Below, piece by piece: positions 20,128 to 59,960 of a DNA stretch of 64,000 nucleotides. The notes beneath the pieces are model-generated. The model saw only the letters and a list, made by a program, of their open reading frames with translations. It did no database searches and was not told the DNA's origin. Position 1 is the stretch's first letter. Each line of letters starts with the position of its first letter. A program made the position numbers and the translations under genes. Origin of the DNA: Octopus vulgaris (taxonomy: Eukaryota); contig OX597829.1 in assembly GCA_951406725.2 (NCBI GenBank), positions 49,662,001 through 49,726,000 of the forward strand, written 5' to 3'.

Positions 20128-20951
20128 CAGCATTTCCCCAGTATTCGCAGGGGTTGCGTTCCTAGAGCACTCACGAACAGTGAAAAACCGCGAATATTGG
20201 ACGCGGTTCATAAAAATTTCTCTATATCTCAAAATATAACGTAATAGATGTATATATATAATACTTAATAATAATTTGTTAAAAAATAAAGTAAAATATA
20301 CTGTTACCAATAATGAATGATATTGATTTAAGGCGATGATGATGAAAATAATGAAGGTAATGACTGCACAGTAAAAAAGATTTAAAGCTCTTCAGTTGAC
20401 GCCTCTTCAGGTTTTTTAGGGGGATGTCGTATCTTTGTGCAAGGCTTTCTTGACGGGCTTCAGGAGCATTGTGATGGGAAGTTGCTGTCGCTGCTTCTTC
20501 ATGGTGGTGAGGAGAGTCGAATATATCCGCATGGCAGCATCGATGGCATTCTTAAATTGGAGAGACAGAAACCATATAGGGATCCCATGCTTCCGCCTTG
20601 CCTTGCAATTTCCTTTGCTGTCCTTAAAAGGTCGGACAGACGTTCGATTGCTAGGCTCACCTCATCCTCCTCTTCTTCTGAAGCTGGCGCTTCCTCATCT
20701 TCTTCGCTTCCAGAGTTCGTTAACTCCAACAAATCTTCGTCTGTCAGGGTTTCAGAGTGGACATCGATGAGGTCGTTAAACTCATTTTGTGTGATGTCAT
20801 CAAAACCTTCGCCACCAAGTATCTTTACCAGTTTCACCGCATTGTTGACAGCTTTGTGCTGAATATCTTCAGGTGAGAAGCCCTCGTAGTCCTGGACACA
20901 CTTTGGCCACACTTTGTTGCAGCATGCAATGAAGGTTTCTTTTCTAATATC
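20128..20951 (-). mobile_element. Tigger/pogo-type DNA transposon, 3' end
   Basis: TA then TIR-like cagcatttccccagtattcgcaggggttgcgttcc. Minus strand gives a Tigger-like C-terminus (CNKVWPKCVQDYEGFS...GGEGFDDIT...LTDEDLLEL). Confidence 0.85.
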
Positions 20952-21122
20952 TTTGAGCTCTAAGAGTTTTTTACTCCTATTTCTAGCAATATAGGTGCTA
21001 CTCGGCGCTCTCAGTGCGATCGTGAATTTACTCGTCCGAATCCATTGCATCCACAAGGTGTTGGAGAGAGTTCCGAGTGTAAATTGCCTTGAGGGAACAG
21101 ATCACGCCTGAATTGAAGATAG

Positions 21123-25655: not shown

Positions 25656-27845
25656 AGGTTGCTTCTGCGCATGTGCGAGTCAGTGTTGTGTTTGGCACTG
25701 AAGCGGTGAAGACGTGCTTTTGAAGCCGTCTTGAATTGAACATTTTTAAAGCCCCATTGTAAGGTAAGATTCTGTTTTCTGGGTCCAGTGGGAATTTTTG
25801 TTGAAAATTGTTTTTTACAGGCAGGAAGTCCTACTGGATTCAGAATTCTGATTCTGCCGACATGGGGCAAATATATTTTTCTCGCTGAATTGTGAGAATT
25901 TTGGGGGGCGTATTCGTCTTCGATAATTGAGTGAATATTTTTCTCACCTAATTATGAGAATTGTATTGTGCTGTGAAGAACTTTAAGAATTGTGAGAACT
26001 GTTATATAGGGGAGTGTTTTGCCTCCGAAGTTTGAACAATTTTTACCAATTTTACACCAATTTTTGTGGAAGTTGTGTTCCAGTTGCGGTGTTCCGGGTT
26101 CAATTTAGGCCGGGAGTACCGAATGGCCAGAAGATTTTTTGCTGTGTTATTGACTTTCTTTTGAACTTTATTTGACTTTCTCCTTTTTTGTTTCTTCTGA
26201 TTTCTTTTTCTTCTCGCCTTTTAAGTTTTATTTTGAATATATTTAAAAAAAAGAAAAAAAAAACATTGCAATGAAAAATGACAAAATTTTGGAATGGGAG
26301 ATCATACCGCCTAAAAAGTGGTTAAAAGACCGTGAAGATAGGACGGTGGTGTTGAGAACCTACTCCAAGACGGCAATTGAAAAGGAGTTGGCAGAGTATT
26401 TGCCAACAATTAAATTTTTTTCCAGGGGTGTCAAATATGCAACGGTGTGGTTGCTATTTGCTTGCAAATTTGCTAGTAAACCCCTGGAGGGTAAGGAAAT
26501 TTTATTCCTGCCCACGTACCAAAAAAAGAGACTGACGAAAGCTTGGATTTGCTGGCTGCCACCCGGGATAGAACCCGAGTGGATAGAGGAGACTATCCGC
26601 CGGGGTCTGGGTAGCAGCGAAACTAAGCTCCTTAATGTGAAAGTTCTTCCTGCGGCTGCTTGGGTTGGGTCAAAAGCAATTTTGACCCTTTGGACCCAAT
26701 CAGCCAATCTGGTTCTTCCAGATGTTTTGAAAATGGCCGGGTGCAGGTACCCGGAGATGCTTGAGGGTCGCCCCCTAAGTGTCATCGGTGCTTGGAGTCC
26801 GGACATATAAAGAAGAACTGTCCCCGGGAACAAAATAGGATCCCGGAACAGTTAAGTGAAACCCCTGTAGAAGAGGAAATGATAACGGCCGTGGAAGCAG
26901 AGGACTCCTCAAACAAAGGCCGAAAGAGGAAGGTGAGCAACAATGGGTGCTCACCAAAGGATACTAGGGATGAGGAGGGAAAGGCGAATCTTCCGGCTAC
27001 GGAGGAGACGCACCCTCCCTCAGTTGAAAAGAAAGAAAAGAAAAAGAGGAAGAGAAACGGGACATTACCGGCAGTCGGTGACATAGTACCGGAATGTCCC
27101 GGAACTACGTCGGTTGGGGTTGTGCCACCGACAGGAGAAGAAACACCGTTGGCGGGAACTGTGCCGCCAACGAAAGAATTGAATATCCCGCACCCGAGCA
27201 AAAACGATGTATTGATCCTCTTCCATAGAGGCGGAGAGATTGAAAAGGTGATGGAAAAGCACCATAAGGGAGCACCTTCAGCCTTCACACAGGACCCCGA
27301 ATGGCCTCCGCAGGTAGCTGTGGAGGCCGTGGCGTTCGACGTGACGCTTGGGCTGAAGGAGCTCAATGAGCATTATAGCTTGGTCCCGGGCGACGCTAAC
27401 TCGGAACTCGATTACATTCTGAGGGAGGCGTGGTGGATGGTGGAGGATGCGGGCACAAGTTATTTTGAGGACGAGTCATAAATTGTGATACGACTTGAGG
27501 GGCCCCGACCTAGAGCTGGCGCATTCCTAAGGGAAGTGTAAGCCAGGTCTGGGAGGAGGGGCTTTGTGTTTTGTATTTATATTTATTGAACTATGTTGTT
27601 GTTAGTAATGGACGGTTAAGTCCAAAAATTGAAAAGTTGTAAAAATTGTAAGAGGTTTAATACCTCGTTTTGTGTTTGTTTTTAAAAGAACAATGTTTTA
27701 GAGAAGCAGAAGTCGGCGGGCGCTTTTTGTCTTCTCCCATCCCCATCATCCTTCTTTCATTATCATTCATTTCATTAATGTCCTCGTCCAGCCCGCAAAG
27801 CTAACTTACTCTATGTACTGCCTTAATGGCAAATGTTATGAAATA
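25656..27845 (+). mobile_element. ORF1-only non-LTR retroelement (HAL1-like) nested in a group A SINE
   Basis: 15-bp TSD aagtagcttg(g/c)ttac at 25641-25655 and 27846-27860; tcagt initiator-like motif near the 5' end; single ORF; ends at aataaa. Confidence 0.8.
26271..27481 (+). pseudogene. L1/Tx1-like ORF1 (gag-like CCHC zinc-knuckle protein), one frameshift
   Basis: Adding one C to the C run at 26771-26775 joins the 179 aa and 229 aa ORFs into ~403 aa with EGRPPK-CHRC-LESG-H-IKKN-C (CX2CX4HX4C). Confidence 0.8.
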
Positions 27846-30805: not shown

Positions 30806-30859
<54 letters not shown>

Positions 30860-30866
<7 letters not shown>

Positions 30867-31282
30867 TTTAGCGATGGTCATGTTGCCAATTTAGCCAATA
30901 AAAATACACGCACTATATATTTGGTGTTATTTAGCTTCAGCGTTCTTTATTTTTTACATTAATCTTAATCTTATTTCGGCCAGAGTTCTTTCGTTACACT
31001 TCTGTGACCTCATCAGTGGTCCTTTGCTTTCTTCTTTCTTATTTGTGTGTCCCTCCTAAGTAACGATCAGCTATTTTGTATTTTGTATTCCTATTGTATG
31101 TGTCTTTATTTGCGCATGCGTATACCCCTATGTGTGTCTATGTTTAGTAAGTGCGTGAGGGGAGTACCTGTATTATGTGTATCCATGATTGTGTAATTTG
31201 TTTTTATTTATTTTGTTCATGTATTTATACCTACTTATTTTTTGTATTTAATTTAATTTAATTATTTTTAAAATTTTAAATT

Positions 31283-31341
<59 letters not shown>

Positions 31342-31800
31342 TTTAATTCCATTTGTTAATCTGTGTATTTTATTATGTTTTGTTTATATTGTTATCAGTT
31401 TATGGGGATCTTATTCTGTCATATGTTGTGGTGTGTTGGGGGGGGGGTGCTAGTGTTCCATTCCAGTTTCCTATTGAGGCTAGGTTTATCTTCTATTATG
31501 TGTGTAGCTTCTGTAACTTGTCGAAGTGTTGCGTCTGTTCTATGTGATAACAAGATTTTAACTTCTATGTTGTTGAGTGAGCCTCCGTATTCCTGCTCGG
31601 CGTGTTGGTACAGAACCGATGAGCTCTTTCCTTCCTTAAGTTCTCTCCAATGAACATTTACCCGCTCTCCTATGCTCCGTGCCGTTTCCCCTACGTACGT
31701 CGTTGTCTTGTTACTGCATCGTCCCTCTGTACATCTTATACTATAGACAACATTTCTGGCTTTACAGTTTGTTTGTGGGCTAAATCTATACACAGTACAG
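30860..31800 (-). mobile_element. Penelope-like element 3' end: GIY-YIG endonuclease plus terminal region
   Basis: NCKARNVVYSIRC...YVGETARSIGERVNVH...EATHI...PSLN at 31419-31780. Downstream partial hammerhead CTGATGA-ggtca...tggcc-GAAA at 30975-31016. Confidence 0.85.
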
Positions 31801-31838
31801 TTCCTATCAGTACTGATGTGTGTAGATTTAGCCCACAA

Positions 31839-31982
31839 GCAGATATAAACCATTAATAAAACAGATATAACCATTAATTAAAACAGATATAAACTATTAA
31901 TTAAACAGATATTAACCATTAATTAAAACAGATATAAACTATTAATTAAACAGATATTAACCATTAATTAAAACAGCTATAA
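31839..31982. repeat. ~20-21 bp minisatellite (cagatataaccattaattaaaa) x ~7
   Basis: Direct inspection. Confidence 0.9.
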
Positions 31983-32279: not shown

Positions 32280-33470
32280 AGAAATCTGCAGTTACTCTAT
32301 CCAGATTACAAGTTCAGGTTTATACCAGTAATTATTGGAACCCCGGGATACGTAACATTGCGAATTGTAATTTTAAAATGTTTTTGAGTTGGACGTATTC
32401 AGCAGTCTTCGCTACTGAGTCAACAAAATTTGGAGAGACACTTGAATTTAGCGATGACGGGAGCAACGGTTTGTTTACATTATTTTTTACGTCGCTTCTG
32501 GCAGATTTTGGCCCATTCTCAGTGTTTTGGAAGGATCGAGAACCAGTTGATGTGTTTTGTTTTTTTTACAAAAGATGCTTGTTGTCGGAGCTGTTTCGCC
32601 ACGAAGGCATTTAAGTTGGGATGAACTTCGTCCCCGTATTGTTTTAACCGCTTCATGTATCCTATGGCTCAGAAACCTGGACGCTATCAAAGAAGCCTGA
32701 GAGGCGGTTGGATGGAACCTACACTCGCCTCCTTATGAGAGCTCAAAATCTCTCGTGGAAGTGCCATCCAACCAAAATGCAAATATATGGGAAACTACCA
32801 CCTGTGTCATCTCTTGTGAAAGGTAGGAGAGTCCAGTTCGCTGGGCATTGTTGTAGAGCTGAAAAAGAGGTAATTTCTACTCTTCTCCTCTGGAAGCCAT
32901 CTACTCGCAATACCAGAGGGCGCACACTCTCCTACACTGATGTAATCTCCAGGGATACAGGCATCCAGCAACAGGACTTCCGTAATGCCATGATGGACCG
33001 TGAAGTCTGGCGTAGCATGGTAAATTCCATTGTCTCGACCACGGTCGAACAATGATGATGATGATCCTATTGAAGGGTCATCTCGGAATTTTTCATAGCA
33101 CCGAAGTAAATCTTGGTTTTGTTGCTGGATCCAAATAAAGATGAGAAGAATACTGACGTCTTCTTAAATAGCTTACTGGTGAAGTGGTTCTGTTTTCATC
33201 GAATGGTGACGTTGTTAGTTTCGTCTGTGGTGGTGTCAGTTTCAGCCATAATCGTGTTAGCGACATTCCACGTTGTGGAGAAGTATATTTTAAAATCTAT
33301 TCAGGATAGCGCTATGTTAATGAGTAAAAGGTATTTCTCTTATTAATTATTCAAGAAATAAACCAGTTGCCGATTTAGGCAGAAGTTGGCTTATTTCTAC
33401 AGACAGGCTTTCAAAACGGACTTTTTAAACGGTCCACCACACCTACACATCCGGTGTTGACGGCGCCATT
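32280..33470 (-). mobile_element. Probable 5' end of an R4/Dong-type element, interrupted by an RTE insertion
   Basis: After removing the RTE, the minus strand reads DLLRCYEKFRDDPSIGYMKRLKQYGDEVHPNLNAFVAKQLRQQASFVKK, resembling the CY..GY.KR..W..HP..QL..Q N-terminal motif of this clade. Confidence 0.45.
32663..33063 (+). mobile_element. 5'-truncated RTE-clade LINE, 3' end
   Basis: YGSETWTLSKK..RRLDGTYTRLLMRAQN...FAGHC...MMDREVWR; stop, then (TGA)n tail; TSD atcctat at 32659-32665 and 33064-33070. Confidence 0.88.
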
Positions 33471-42756: not shown

Positions 42757-43320
42757 TCTCATATATATTTATGTCCGTTTTTATTGTGTACTACTCCCAG
42801 ACCATCGTCCTTGTATAAATCTATGTTTGCACCTTTCATTTCTTTTTAAGGACAGCTAGTATATAAAAGCCTACGAGGTCAGCTATTTCGTCCCCGTCAT
42901 AGTTCCCCACTGCTGTATCAAGCATTCGTCTCCATTCTTTTTTTTTTTTACCCAGGAGTTATCATGAAAGAGTAATGGCTTCCATGCGTTCATAATTGTT
43001 TATATCGGTATTTTTTGTAGTGTCGTATGCTTTGCTAAATTCAAGTACCTTCTGAAGCAAGCATTTGGAGATCAAGGAGTAGAACTCTACGATGTCGAAT
43101 TGTATAAATTTGCATTTAGGTTTATCCTCTATGTTCTTAAACCATTCAATAGTTGCATAACCGCATATCCATTGATTAAGATCTGTGTGTACTTTGGTAT
43201 ATCGTATAATGTTATCGAATATAGATTTTGTGAGATTTATTAATCTACTGCCAGGATTTTGTGTAAAATTGTTTTTATGGTCTCTAAGAGATATACAAAG
43301 ATTTCGTGGGATAAGTTTTT
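42757..43320 (-). mobile_element. Penelope-like reverse transcriptase fragment
   Basis: SLRDHKNNF..NP..RLIN, LNQW, FIQFDIVEFY, GNYDGDEIADLVGFYIL, LYKDDGL. Continues at 43740-43770 beyond a SINE insertion. Confidence 0.85.
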
Positions 43321-43324
43321 CTAC

Positions 43325-43738
43325 TCTCTCTCTCTTTCTCTCTTTCTCTCTTTTACTTGTTTCAGTCATTTGACTGCGGCCATGCTGGAGCACCGCCTTT
43401 AGTCGAGCAAATCGACCCCGGGACTTATTCTTTGTAAGTCCAAGTAAGCCCAGTACTTATTCTATCGGTCTCTTTTTGCCGAACCGCTAAGTGACGGGGA
43501 CGTAAACACACCAGCATCGGTTGTCAGGAAATGCTAGGGGGACAAACACAGACACACAAACACACACACACATACATATATATACATACATATATACGAC
43601 AGGCTTCTTTCAGTTTCCGTCTACCAAATCCAATCACAAGGCATTGGTCGGCCCGGGGCTATAGCAGAAGACACTTGCCCAAGATGCCACGCATGTGGTT
43701 GGTTAGCAAGCTACTTACCACACAGCCACTCCTGCACC
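43325..43738 (-). mobile_element. SINE group A nested in the Penelope RT
   Basis: Family consensus match. Confidence 0.92.
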
Positions 43739-54501: not shown

Positions 54502-56570
54502 TCGATGTCCCGCAGAATACAATATCGTGATGTTGTTGATTGAAGATATTGTGTCTACCAGGGGTTAGTACTGTTTGTCAAGTCGCAACAGGGACCTCAG
54601 ACAGACGATCTCAATTCTCAGATCTCCATATTTATCAACCTGTTCTCTTTCTTTCTTTCAAGATGATGTGTTGATCTCCTGGCACTGCCACGTCGATCAT
54701 TAAGCACTCTTGTTTGTCCCTCCTAAAAGTCACTATGTCCGGCCTTCGATGCTCTAATACCTTGTCTTTGTGGAAATCAAAGTCCCAGAGGATTTTGCTT
54801 TCCTCTTTTCGTACATTACCTTTTCCGGTGTATGTTGGTACCAAGCACCCGTAACCTAACATCCATACTTAAGGCAAAGCAGCCAGTGGAGACTTTGAGC
54901 TACCTTGACGTGTCTAAGCTTGTACGCTTTCTACACAAGACTTTCACAGGCACTAACAATGTGAGTCACGCTTTCGACCCTCTTCCCACATAGAGATCCG
55001 TATCACTTGTGTAGTATATATTCTTTTTCACTGAGTCGGTATTCAATGCCTGGTCCTGGGCAGCGATGATTAGGCTTTCAGTATTCACTTTTAGGTCACC
55101 CTTGTTAAGTCACCTTCATGGTGCTTCCTGATCTTTTAATTTTTTGGTTTCACGATGGAACTGACTATGTGATTCCATGCCGCGTAGGGTTTCTTCTCTC
55201 TCGTTGGCTGTTCAAGATCGGAATTCATGAACGTTCTCGAGTCCATCTTTGTTAAATCCTTCTGCATTAGCAGCATACAGTTGCAGGTCTTGTTTGCAGT
55301 TTACCAAATATTCTGCCATGTTTCTTCTTTCACTGTTGATGCACTCCGGTACGCTAATTAGCCCATGTCCACCTTTACCTCACTTCATGTAGAGTCTGTG
55401 TACATGCGCTTTAGGGTGGAGGGCACCATATATTGACATTGTCTTTCGGATAGTAAGATCGAGTTGGTTAATTTCCGCTTCTAGCCATTTCAGGATGGGT
55501 GCACTATAGCGGACTACAGCAACCACCCATATGTTGATGGCAGTCACAAGGTTCTTTGAGTTGAGCTCTGATTTCAAGAGAAGTTTGAGGCGCTTGAAAT
55601 ATGCAGTGGTGACCTTGTCTTTCATTTCTTTGTGCAAGATACTGTCCAGCTCTAGGATCCCAAGGTACTTGTACCCATCATCATCCGGGTCTTCCATTCT
55701 CTCTCCGTTTGGCAATTCTATGCTCCTACAATCTGCTCTTTTCCCCCGCTTCAAAGTAAGCAACCACACACTTCGAGATACCGAATTTCATCCCCATATC
55801 CTTGCTGCACATTTGCACAGTCTCAACTAGCCTCTCAATTTCAAGCTCTGTTTTGGCGAACAGTATTAAAATCATTAATGAAGAGAAGATGGTTGAGACG
55901 AGATCCATTCTACGCGTTGACTTTGCGTAGGACTACAGAAAGTGGGATAAAAGAGGTGAACAAATAACAGAGGTGAACAAGAGTCTCCTTGGAAGATACC
56001 TCTACAGGAAAGATGCGCTTTCGAACTAGGAATACTGTTCTTAATCAGTGCACACACGTTCTCAGTTATTCCACACATATCAAATGTTTCCAAAATCCAG
56101 GCAGCCTTTTTGAAATCTTTCCAGGCCATGCATAAGTTTTTTTGGGGGTTTTTTTGTACCGTTTACAATTCTTCATTATAACCTTGTCTATCACAAGATG
56201 GTCCTTGGTGCCTTTGGATCCTTTTCGGCATCCCTTTTGTTCTACTGGCAATAGTTTGTTTTCCGCAAGGAACGTATATATTTTCCCTGCGAAGATACTT
56301 GTTAATACTTTCCATAGAAGGTTAAGACAAGGAATGGGTCGGTAATTACTAAGCTCATTGCCCTATGACCGATCTTTCATTAACAACGTTGGTTTTCCCT
56401 CTACCATCCACTCCGGAACTGCACCGTTCTGTAGGCAATTATCTAACTGCAACGCAATTCTCTTGTGTCTTGACCTAAACCACTTGAACCAGTAGCCTTG
56501 AATTCTGTCTGGTCCTACCGCTTTCCAGTTTGGCAGTTTTTATACCTGTGCAATAACAATTCCATTCCAG
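54502..56570 (-). mobile_element. R4/Dong-clade non-LTR retrotransposon (RT plus endonuclease), same family as 4706-5694
   Basis: NYRPIPCL, EQKGCRKGSKGTKDHLVID, RGIFQGDSCSPLLF, YKYLGILE, HRRPDIVTF; several deletions; ends in (TAC)n/(TAA)n. Confidence 0.92.
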
Positions 56571-56974: not shown

Positions 56975-57139
56975 TACGACGGGCTTCTTTCAGTTTCCGT
57001 CTACCAAATCCACTCACAAGGCTTTGGTCGGCCCGAGGCTATAGGAGAAGACACTTGCCCAAGATACCACGCAGTGGGACTGAACCCGGAACCATGTGGT
57101 TGGTAAGCAAGCTACTTACCACACAGCCACTCCTGCGCC
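56720..57139 (-). mobile_element. SINE group A, full length
   Basis: Family consensus match. Confidence 0.92.
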
Positions 57140-57384
57140 TTCTAACCTGGTATTATCAATGCCCGTGTCTATTTTAATGCATCTATTAAACGACAGACAA
57201 GCTGGCATTTTTAAAAATTTTTATTGCTGTTGCTATTTCATCGCTAAGCTTTGTCTTTTTGGGTGGTACATTGAAATATATCTGAGCTGTGCCAAGTATT
57301 CCTATTTTATACACGTTGTTTGTGTGTCAACACCATGGTTTTGTCATCTATCCGCCTGTTTTGTTATCGATTTAATTGTAAAGA

Positions 57385-57675: not shown

Positions 57676-58097
57676 TTTATCCTAATCTTATCATTTGCAA
57701 ATCACCTGTTATTGTTTTTATTTTTATTCTTTAATTACTGTGTCTGTAGAAAAGCAGCAGTTTTTGCCAATATCGGATCTTACGAGACCGGCACGGCTGA
57801 AGCCATTAATAATTCAATACTTACAGCAAAAGATAGTTCCAGAGAACCGAAGATCTGTAAAGGAACAACTAGGTGTATTGATTAGGTGTACTGATTAGCT
57901 TTATCTGTATTTTTTTAGGGGATAGCATTATCTGTGTTGGTTTTTCTTTGTTTGCAAGTTCATTATGCTAATTAATATTTACGTTCATTTTTGTTTAATT
58001 TTACTAATCACTTTTAAAACTCTGTGAACTTTACATTAGGATTCATTTATATTTACTAAATTTATTGTGATGTCTCTGTTCAAACTGAGTTTTGTGG

Positions 58098-58646
58098 ATA
58101 GAAATAATACATTTCTAAATCTCTCAGAGAGATTTATGCAGTAGCAGCACGATACAGTGATAGTATGTCGTCAACTTAATGTGACAGTCCCATGAAAGGG
58201 AAGAATATTACTGTTATTTAGCCCTAGGAAACACCATTTCCTGTTGGACTTGACACATTTCCTGTGTCCTAACGTTTTCAAAATGGAGATAAGCACCTCT
58301 ACCCAACAAAGCCAGCGTTCAGAGACTAGTTTCAGAGTCATTGCTCATCATCAGTCTGAAGTAGCATGGCTTGCTAGCTGTTGATGTCTACCTGCCCTTG
58401 CAATCATATTTCAAGTAAAATACATTCAGTGATTTTTGAAAATAGAAATAATATATTTCTAAATCTCTCAGAGAGATTTATGCAGTAGCAGCACGATAAA
58501 GTGATAGTATGTTGTCAACTCAATGTGACAGTCCCATGAAAGGGAAGAATGCTACTGTTATTTAGCCCTAGGAAACACCGTTTCCTGGTGGACTCGACAC
58601 AAATCCTGTTGGACTGTCACATTAAGTTGACAACATACTATTACTG
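58098..58646 (-). mobile_element. 1.5-mer of a 344-bp hammerhead-bearing unit with short terminal inversion
   Basis: 58098-58265 is repeated at 58442-58609; 58610-58646 is an inverted copy of an internal segment; TSD-like actgagtt(tt)gtgg on both flanks. Confidence 0.8.
58318..58360 (-). ncRNA. Minimal type I hammerhead ribozyme motif
   Basis: Minus strand ttcaga-CTGATGA-t-gag(caatga)ctc-t-GAAAC-ta-GTC-tctgaa: 6-bp stem I, 3-bp stem II, palindromic ACTAGT stem III, GUC site. Confidence 0.8.
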
Positions 58647-58904
58647 AGTTGTGGGAATTTCCTATGAGCTGAGTTCCAGAGAGAATAAAAAGGCTGAAAT
58701 GTCATTAGGAACATTTTGATTCATTGACATTTCGTGTTTGTTATAGTTTAAAGATGATAGAAGAGCGATAGCTAAAGCATAAGAATGTAGTGGGTGTATG
58801 TTGGTACAACCTGAGATGAAATAGCAATTAAGGTTTCAAGATGGCACTTTTACTATTTTCAGATAAAGGATTTAGGATTTTTTTTTATCTATCATCTGTA
58901 TCAG

Positions 58905-59069
58905 TGGTGTAGGCGCGGCTGTGTGGTTAAGAAGCTTGCTTCCCAAGCATGAGGTCTTGGGTTCCATCCGAGTGCACAATACCTTGAACAAGCGTCTTCT
59001 GCTATAAGCTCTGAACCGAACAAAGCTTTGTAAGTGTATTTGATGGAAGGTAATTGAAAGAAACCCACC

Positions 59070-59515: not shown

Positions 59516-59540
59516 TCAACACATACATTCTTTATGCATA

Positions 59541-59960
59541 GGCGTAGGAGTGGCTGTGTGGTAAGTAGCTTGCTTACCAACCACATGGTTCCGGGTTCAG
59601 TTCCACTGCGTGGCATCATGGGCAAGTGTCTTCTGCCTCGGGCCCACCAAAGCCTTGTGAGTGGAGTTAGTAGACGGAAACTGACAGAAGCCTGTCGTAT
59701 ATATGTATATGTATATATGTATGTGTGTGTGTGTGTTTGTGTGTCTGTGTTCGTCCCCCTAGCATTGCTTGACAACTGATGCTGGTGTGTTTACGTCCCC
59801 GTTACTTAGCGGTTCGGCAAAAGAAACCGATAGAATAAGTACTGGGCTTACAAAAGAATAAGTAGTCCTGGGGTCGATTTGCTCGACTAAAAAGGCGGTG
59901 CTCCAGCATGGCCGCAGTCAAATGACTGAAACAAGTAAAAGAGTAAAAGAGAAAAGAGAG
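59541..59960 (+). mobile_element. SINE group A, full length
   Basis: Family consensus match. Confidence 0.92.

Follow-up and report, generated by a model that had tools for sequence, protein, structure and literature searches.

Small non-coding retroelements that carry hammerhead ribozymes, known as non-LTR retrozymes, have already been published from corals, mussels, the axolotl and other vertebrates. In the part of the main text of PMC7229834 (Cervera and de la Pena 2020) on which we draw, the units measure 220-245 nt in corals, 350-390 nt in Mytilus and 330 or 350 nt in the axolotl, and cleavage of the axolotl retrozymes is poor for monomers and good for dimers. The enzyme that moves animal retrozymes has so far been proposed on indirect grounds. 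A link to Penelope elements was put forward in that article and, for vertebrates, in the available part of the preprint by Li, Clavereau and Pollet (2026, bioRxiv 10.64898/2026.07.22.740005), which also reports that solo and partial retrozyme copies are common.

Penelope elements themselves leave a recognizable footprint. As described in the consulted section of PMC3846280, a typical insert combines two direct repeats with an inverted one, and has a tail and a target-site duplication (TSD) of 8-10 bp; the pseudo-LTRs (pLTRs) of these elements carry hammerheads and can mobilise in trans whatever sits between them. Penelope-like elements with the same inverted and tail features appear in the portion of PMC8557442 used here. 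According to the sections of PMC11167929 available to us, the Penelope protein cuts AT-rich DNA and extends both strands, and two internal RNA start sites bound the tail; in vitro, priming was homology-independent, the RNA was uncut and ribozyme cleavage was not needed.

Here, we describe a 549-bp insertion in Octopus vulgaris, located in a window of 64 kb (the whole stretch of DNA that was analysed). We argue that it is probably a non-autonomous retrozyme that was copied by a Penelope-like reverse transcriptase (RT)/endonuclease from both cut DNA strands.

Architecture of the insertion

The site of the insertion is not a TA microsatellite, and the locus can be divided into the following features, with coordinates counted from the start of the window.

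58084..58099, plus strand: left TSD, about 16 bp, decayed; its last 2 nt are compatible with the element too
58098..58265, no strand assigned: direct repeat copy 1 (168 bp), from sequence comparison in the window
58098..58441, minus strand: single complete 344-nt non-coding unit, 39% GC, whose junction is crossed by diverged contigs
58098..58609, minus strand: arm 1, 512 nt or 1.49 units, starting at the fixed family end 58095-58099
58098..58152, minus strand: tail of 54 nt between the fixed ends, with loose ends at 58098/9 and 58496 and predicted hairpins
58303..58377, minus strand: hammerhead of type I whose stem I is extended; its core spans 58318-58360, the cut is predicted at 58324/58323, and position 1.7 (58317) is C, against U in the family
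58385..58441, minus strand: ORF-free spacer from the ribozyme to the next unit start, variable between subfamilies, with the depth minimum and alternative spacers
58442..58609, no strand assigned: direct repeat copy 2 (168 bp), 11 differences from copy 1
58604..58615, no strand assigned: arm-arm junction, which one untemplated base or short microhomologies with 58239-58250 would explain
58611..58646, plus strand: arm 2, an inverted 36-bp segment equal to 58155-58190 reversed, 3 nt short of the second fixed end
58643..58658, plus strand: right TSD; its first 4 nt are compatible with arm 2 too

A preliminary description of this DNA had pointed to direct repeats of 168 bp with a period of 344, to TSD-like flanks and to the lack of an open reading frame, and all three observations held. 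The repeats are the same at 157 of 168 positions. The flanks agree at 13 of 16 (58084-58099 against 58643-58658), with a null value of 0.001 when the comparison is anchored at the junctions (local flanks) and of 0.018 when it is unanchored. Stops occur in all six reading frames of the 344-nt unit, and the 176 non-coding nt that separate the direct repeats contain no RT/GIY-YIG frame. The terminal inversion that had been reported is also present, with 34 of 36 positions identical between 58611-58646 and 58155-58190, at a length of 36 bp rather than 37 bp. Since the 81 nt that separate one unit's RT start from the following ribozyme are ORF-free, the template would have contained no RT gene. The sense of the RNA would be that of the minus strand, with the cDNA of arm 1 running left to right on the plus strand. 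There is no further copy of the element elsewhere in the 64-kb window.

The insertion is flanked by an inverted pair of a dispersed repeat (57000-57140 and 59540-59674; 95 nt at 96% and 40 nt at 93%), which we take to be SINE-like, and more copies of this repeat lie at 58906-59011 and 59333-59501/59767-59937.

A hammerhead ribozyme of canonical build

A type I hammerhead on the minus strand between the repeats had been recognized beforehand, and it proved to be well formed. The conserved core letters are complete at 58318-58360. Stem I has 6 bp (58360-58355 with 58323-58318), CUGAUGA occupies 58354-58348, stem II consists of a U.U and 3 bp with a 6-nt loop whose last letter is A, and GAAA lies at 58333-58330. 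Helix III is reduced to a palindromic hexamer (58330-58325), next to which is GUC, with the cut predicted between 58324 and 58323. Beyond an internal loop, stem I continues for 2+4+7 extra pairs, a longer extension than had been proposed. Our descriptor, which allowed the first pair of stem II to remain open, gave this single match in 64 kb; 100 Markov shuffles yielded 0.06 matches per window, and 0 of the 100 shuffled windows had a stem I of at least 6 bp plus a short stem III.

The same hammerhead had been labelled minimal, and here the published descriptions lead to a different assignment. In the consulted part of PMC4209133, the canonical metazoan hammerhead has a helix I of 6 bp, a helix II of 4 and a short palindromic helix III, while the minimal form found in Penelope pLTRs has a long helix II, a helix I of 3-5 bp whose loop 1 is poorly defined, and a single unpaired base after A9. 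Given that helix I at our locus has 6 bp with an internal loop, helix II has 4 positions and helix III is short and palindromic, the hammerhead at 58318-58360 is of the canonical retrozyme build. It departs from the minimal Penelope form both in helix I (6 bp plus the extension) and in helix II (U.U plus 3 bp).

Searches and folding gave less distinctive results. Rfam returned no match to a hammerhead model, either in 5 kb at E<=1 or in 151 bp at E<=10, and instead gave only microsatellite-driven matches to miRNAs and weak matches, far below threshold, to C/D snoRNAs. The folding energy of the hammerhead is not better than that of shuffles (z -1.3, -0.4 and +0.1), and the monomer fold pairs core C3 with G16.2 at a probability of 0.89. 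In dimer folding, the double hammerhead reaches -48.8 kcal/mol, compared with -46.8 for two monomers and -52.8 for the best dimer; with the family-majority letters, these values are -58.4, -61.0 and -67.0 kcal/mol, and the double hammerhead is again not the lowest. To judge from such models, action of the hammerhead as a dimer would be plausible. The circular 344-nt unit, folded from this decayed copy, is 66% paired (z -1.3; 19 of 200 shuffles). Pattern scans in metagenome contigs and in viral contigs gave 0 matches each.

Within the ribozyme, A9 and the two letters that follow it, the U of the U.U pair and a G, make up an AUG 25 nt ahead of the cut site (58348-58040, minus strand). The ORF of the anole Poseidon element starts at a similar place relative to its hammerhead cut (PMC11167929, in the part consulted). 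The unit was considered as the carrier of a Penelope ORF start and rejected in this role, as the frame contains 6 stops within 103 codons; the AUG at stem II may be left over from the element's origin or due to chance.

A dispersed family in related organisms

The element or part of it is present in 20 of the 24 runs listed. Six of these 24 were analysed, as contigs only, namely four DNA runs (four coded organisms) and two guessed RNA runs; X2, X4-X12, X17-X19 and the small- or zero-share X20-X24 were left out. Between 2,631 and 4,091 contigs per DNA run align to the element, which is a dispersed multi-copy family.

Variants of the ribozyme region were recorded in two DNA and two guessed RNA runs at a share of at least 10% of summed contig depth, a measure distinct from copy number. 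At this share, 15 of 86 places vary in 58300-58385 and none of the 13 hammerhead core places does, an invariance that alone is not significant (about 0.1 by chance). Among the 11 variants listed at paired places, seven keep or make a pair and four break one. Pair 2.5:1.5 is C-G in the family majority and U-A in the copy at 58098-58646, a two-sided change, and the U.U base of stem II is repaired by family minorities from either side (A-U and U-A). Position 1.7 is U in the family (89-100% of depth) and C in this copy. For solved hammerheads, the consulted parts of PMC11875169 and PMC6155905 describe a Hoogsteen contact between U1.7 and the last A of loop II, and a section heading in PMC11875169 calls this contact not essential in that study's own constructs. 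In the guessed RNA runs (43 and 44 contigs, at low depth), the family letters at 58317, 58319 and 58359 account for 96-100% of depth, and a quarter of the contigs continue into other sequence, as expected of passengers in other transcripts.

In X1, the ribozyme has a summed depth of 73,000-169,000 and the spacer one of 1,700; in X3, the corresponding values are 24,000-56,000 and 270. Alternative spacers explain part of this 40- to 200-fold drop. The tandem is closed by at least two spacer types (58386-58441; X1, X3 and X14), giving units of about 328 and of 343-344 nt. One X3 joint runs from 58386 to 58099 with 40 letters between (a 328-nt unit), and one X14 joint from 58435 to 58099 with 6 letters between (a 343-nt unit). 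The unit junction is also crossed by record 13 of X13 (58341-58487, 15 other letters) and by record 24 of X16 (58320-58500, 20 other letters), both of which bridge it by more than 31 letters. Because these diverged contigs and the X3 and X14 joints share the unit junction, the ORF-less tandem has been inherited and did not arise by chance truncation. No contig with two ribozymes in tandem was seen among contigs that are too short to span two.

Two fixed ends and a tail

Loose ends and joints were compared in parts of longer lists, comprising 24 rows of loose ends and 15 joints. The first fixed end, at 58095-58099 or its repeat, recurs in all four DNA runs (in at least 23, 96, 41 and 81 contigs), and the flanks beyond it are unrelated to each other and AT-rich, some of them TA-like (agreement 0.43-0.49). 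The second, at 58496 (equivalent to 58152), was found in two of the four DNA runs among the matches listed, in at least 20 and 23 contigs. These ends are 54 nt apart; arm 1 begins at the first, and arm 2 stops 3 nt from the second. The tail between them is a candidate RT recognition site. Two hairpins are predicted in it, one at 58099-58117 (8 bp, ending at the first fixed end) and another at about 58116-58136 (z -2.0; 11 of 200 shuffles), and the one variable place listed for 58443-58498 turns a G.U into an A-U. Joints to the opposite strand occur at scattered places, making up 9 of the 15 joints listed for the four DNA runs and 6 of 7 in the ribozyme-region analysis (two DNA and two guessed RNA runs), each seen in one contig.

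There is also some likeness between target and template. For arm 1, 58084-58099 agrees with the unit junction at 58428-58443 at 11 of 16 positions (null 0.034), and for arm 2 the null is 0.088, with windows chosen post hoc in both cases. This gives a hint that the target may pair partly with the template RNA at priming.

Age and activity of this copy

The two direct repeats diverge by 6.5%, and across the 36 nt present in triplicate, each copy has one private change; decay would thus amount to about 3% per repeat. Contigs of X13, a second organism, span both flanks, continue inside the element for 30-31 letters and differ at 2 and 10 letters. Since they cover both the flanks and the edges of the element, the insertion likely predates the split from this organism. 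No insertion-free site was seen, with the flanks largely uncovered by X3 and X14 contigs. At position 58648 in the right TSD, one contig each of X13 and X14 has A for G, and an A there would better match the right TSD to the RNA at the start of arm 2.

The locus contains one hammerhead only, and two consecutive complete units are absent; with a single ribozyme, it should be unable to release a monomer by itself. Given this, the missing U1.7 and the decay of about 3%, the copy is likely an inactive fossil. There is no sign of a host function for it.

Penelope-like material in the same window

A GIY-YIG fragment lies at 31419-31877 on the minus strand. Its Pfam match (E 0.004) is below the cut-off, and over 52 aa it aligns at 69% with an 803-aa Octopus vulgaris RT protein. 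The stretch at 30857-31877 (minus strand) resembles the 3′ end of a Penelope-like element, with the GIY-YIG, a 3′ UTR of about 400 nt, a minimal-type hammerhead and a TA microsatellite. The core of that hammerhead starts at 31016 and has a long stem II with one mismatch and a short stem I, in contrast to the canonical one at 58318-58360. A 164-aa open frame at 42962-43456 (minus strand) has no Pfam match at E 0.01; its motifs suggest a decayed piece of a Penelope-type RT.

Local alignment of the 344-nt element with the Penelope-like fragments at 31.4 kb and at 43 kb scored 22-25 at best, which is not significant, and no partner element sharing its cis sequence was found within the 64-kb window. 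A tblastn search with an octopus Penelope-type protein gave no match inside the 549-bp element. Other open frames that resemble transposon relics lie at 26247-27481 (plus), 20499-21101 (minus), 32648-33055 (plus) and 55380-55787 (minus); the only Pfam match among these, a zinc knuckle at 26765, has an E value of 0.0035, below the cut-off.

Proposed origin and alternative explanations

Our analysis establishes the geometry of the insertion, the two fixed ends, the shared unit junction and the structure-keeping variation. At 58084-58658, direct repeats and an adjacent inverted repeat lie inside a TSD, a Penelope-type footprint. The preliminary description had read the locus as a reverse-transcribed 1.5-mer of a small RNA mobilized by a Penelope-like RT, and the non-coding hammerhead unit, this footprint and the junction and fixed ends common to independent copies agree with it, the word minimal excepted. 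We propose that tandem units would be transcribed on the minus strand. By analogy with known retrozymes, paired hammerheads could then form via the palindromic helix III and cleave the multimers into monomers, which a host ligase may close to circles. A Penelope-like protein would bind the hairpin tail and make a cut staggered by about 16 nt in AT-rich DNA, after which both DNA 3′ ends would be extended on same-sense RNA from start sites 54 nt apart. The top strand would be extended for 1.49 units, past the ribozyme cut site and the unit junction, and the bottom strand for 36 nt, and the cDNAs of both strands would be joined head to head. Priming from both cut strands is suggested because both arms read inward as same-sense cDNA. 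The enzyme of insertion was likely a borrowed Penelope-like RT/GIY-YIG endonuclease. Since both the cut site and the junction lie within arm 1, the template would have been circular, a multimer left uncut or a joined pair of RNAs, and we give a circle about the same credence as an uncut multimer.

The nearest alternative shares this element and enzyme and dispenses with the circle, the template being a linear multimer left uncut, or a pair of RNAs that template jumping had joined. It is a variant of our explanation and not exclusive of it, and we see it as a real possibility that falls short of probable. The cDNA passes the cut site intact, and arm 1 crosses the start site of arm 2 twice, so that arm 2 needs a further unit or a second RNA; the weak helix III would also slow cleavage of the monomer (PMC7229834, in the part used). 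Of the 11 differences between repeats, one (58110/58454) has both letters common in the family and is the one informative site for circle versus multimer, as letter shares elsewhere in the duplicated part are biased by contigs that fit two places. Conversely, the 36 nt in triplicate with one private change each look like one template followed by about 3% decay, and related families form abundant circles (PMC7229834, same part). A different proposal is that the ribozyme and tail make up the pseudo-LTR end of a Penelope-like family that is longer or autonomous, with the 344-nt unit as a minor internal-deletion derivative or the parent's partial tandem, lacking an RNA life cycle of its own. The collapse of depth by 40- to 200-fold upstream of the ribozyme would fit this, as would the movement in trans of sequence between hammerhead-bearing pLTRs (PMC3846280, consulted section), the AUG at stem II, placed 25 nt ahead of the cut as in anole Poseidon, and the use of uncut RNA by Poseidon in vitro with the ribozyme dispensable (both from the available sections of PMC11167929). 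However, 6 stops interrupt the 103 codons of the AUG frame, and the ribozyme is canonical rather than minimal. The sole loose end listed behind the ribozyme (X1, 58386, 12 contigs) resembles the start of the alternative spacer of X3, which rejoins the unit, and the share of DNA contigs continuing into unlike sequence is 0.01-0.05, although short contigs hide branches. We regard a longer parent family as unlikely.

Two further proposals can be given far less weight. Local DNA repair after insertion might have duplicated and partly inverted a solo repeat end, and microhomologies do exist at the arm-arm junction. Nevertheless, the duplication begins exactly at the fixed end of the family, the unit junction is common to diverged copies in other organisms and a single TSD encloses the whole, which makes such an event very improbable. 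If the hammerhead were due to chance, or were a C/D-box-like motif, within an ordinary repeat, this would accord with the missing Rfam hammerhead match, the weak C/D snoRNA matches far below threshold and the non-significant folding z. Yet the core is complete with the correct three-stem geometry, which 0 of 100 shuffled windows equalled, and stem I shows a two-sided change alongside pair-keeping variants; we hardly credit this idea at all.

Returning to a retrozyme copied by a Penelope-like enzyme, a more ambitious version can be formulated, which we offer as speculation and doubt in its entirety. It would be an old octopus lineage with units of 328-344 nt in at least four related organisms, in which a Penelope-like enzyme copies a small circular RNA from both cut strands, beginning at the base of a conserved hairpin and aided by partial pairing of target ends with the RNA. 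If this were true, the many insertions at unique sites would amount to an in vivo map of Penelope priming, to be set against the homology-independent result in vitro.

Comparison with known systems

By its sequence, the octopus element would qualify as a metazoan non-LTR retrozyme, which would extend this class to an octopus-type genome. Its 344 nt and 39% GC lie inside the retrozyme range of 150-450 bp head-to-tail units with less than 50% GC. We found no cephalopod retrozyme of this sort in the literature searched, mostly without subscription papers, and the main text of PMC7229834, as far as it was available, does not mention cephalopods. The insertion shape (both strands primed, two fixed starts, a tail and a TSD) points to Penelope-like proteins as the moving enzymes. 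Furthermore, as the family inserts outside microsatellites too, its junctions are readable at single-base resolution, and priming and target choice become testable.

Compared with the non-LTR retrozymes in the consulted text of PMC7229834, the octopus element has the same kind of non-coding unit of a few hundred nt, with less than 50% GC, one type I hammerhead and a TSD of more than 4 bp. Its ribozyme combines the weak palindromic helix III of the axolotl HHR_Amex1 with the helix II U.U of HHR_Amex2. It differs in that the locus has only 1.5 units and one ribozyme, and in its visible Penelope-type inverted arm and two fixed ends, which that text does not describe. With the vertebrate retrozymes of bioRxiv 10.64898/2026.07.22.740005, in the part available, it shares a proposed dependence on Penelope and a unit length within range. 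The class called active there has two consecutive ribozyme units, in contrast to the octopus locus. The link to Penelope rests there on co-occurrence and pLTR homology, whereas here it comes from insertion geometry, with no partner homology found. Finally, like Adineta Pen2a (PMC3846280), anole Poseidon (PMC11167929) and the elements of PMC8557442, in the sections used, the octopus insertion has two direct repeats and an adjacent inverted repeat, with an optional tail and a TSD. As in the endonuclease-bearing Penelope-like elements of these sources, there are two internal RT starts, and both strands were apparently extended. Unlike them, it has no ORF in the 176 nt between its repeats, a tail of 54 nt (58098-58152) in place of the published 30-40 nt, a TSD of about 16 instead of 8-10 bp and a hammerhead that is canonical rather than minimal.
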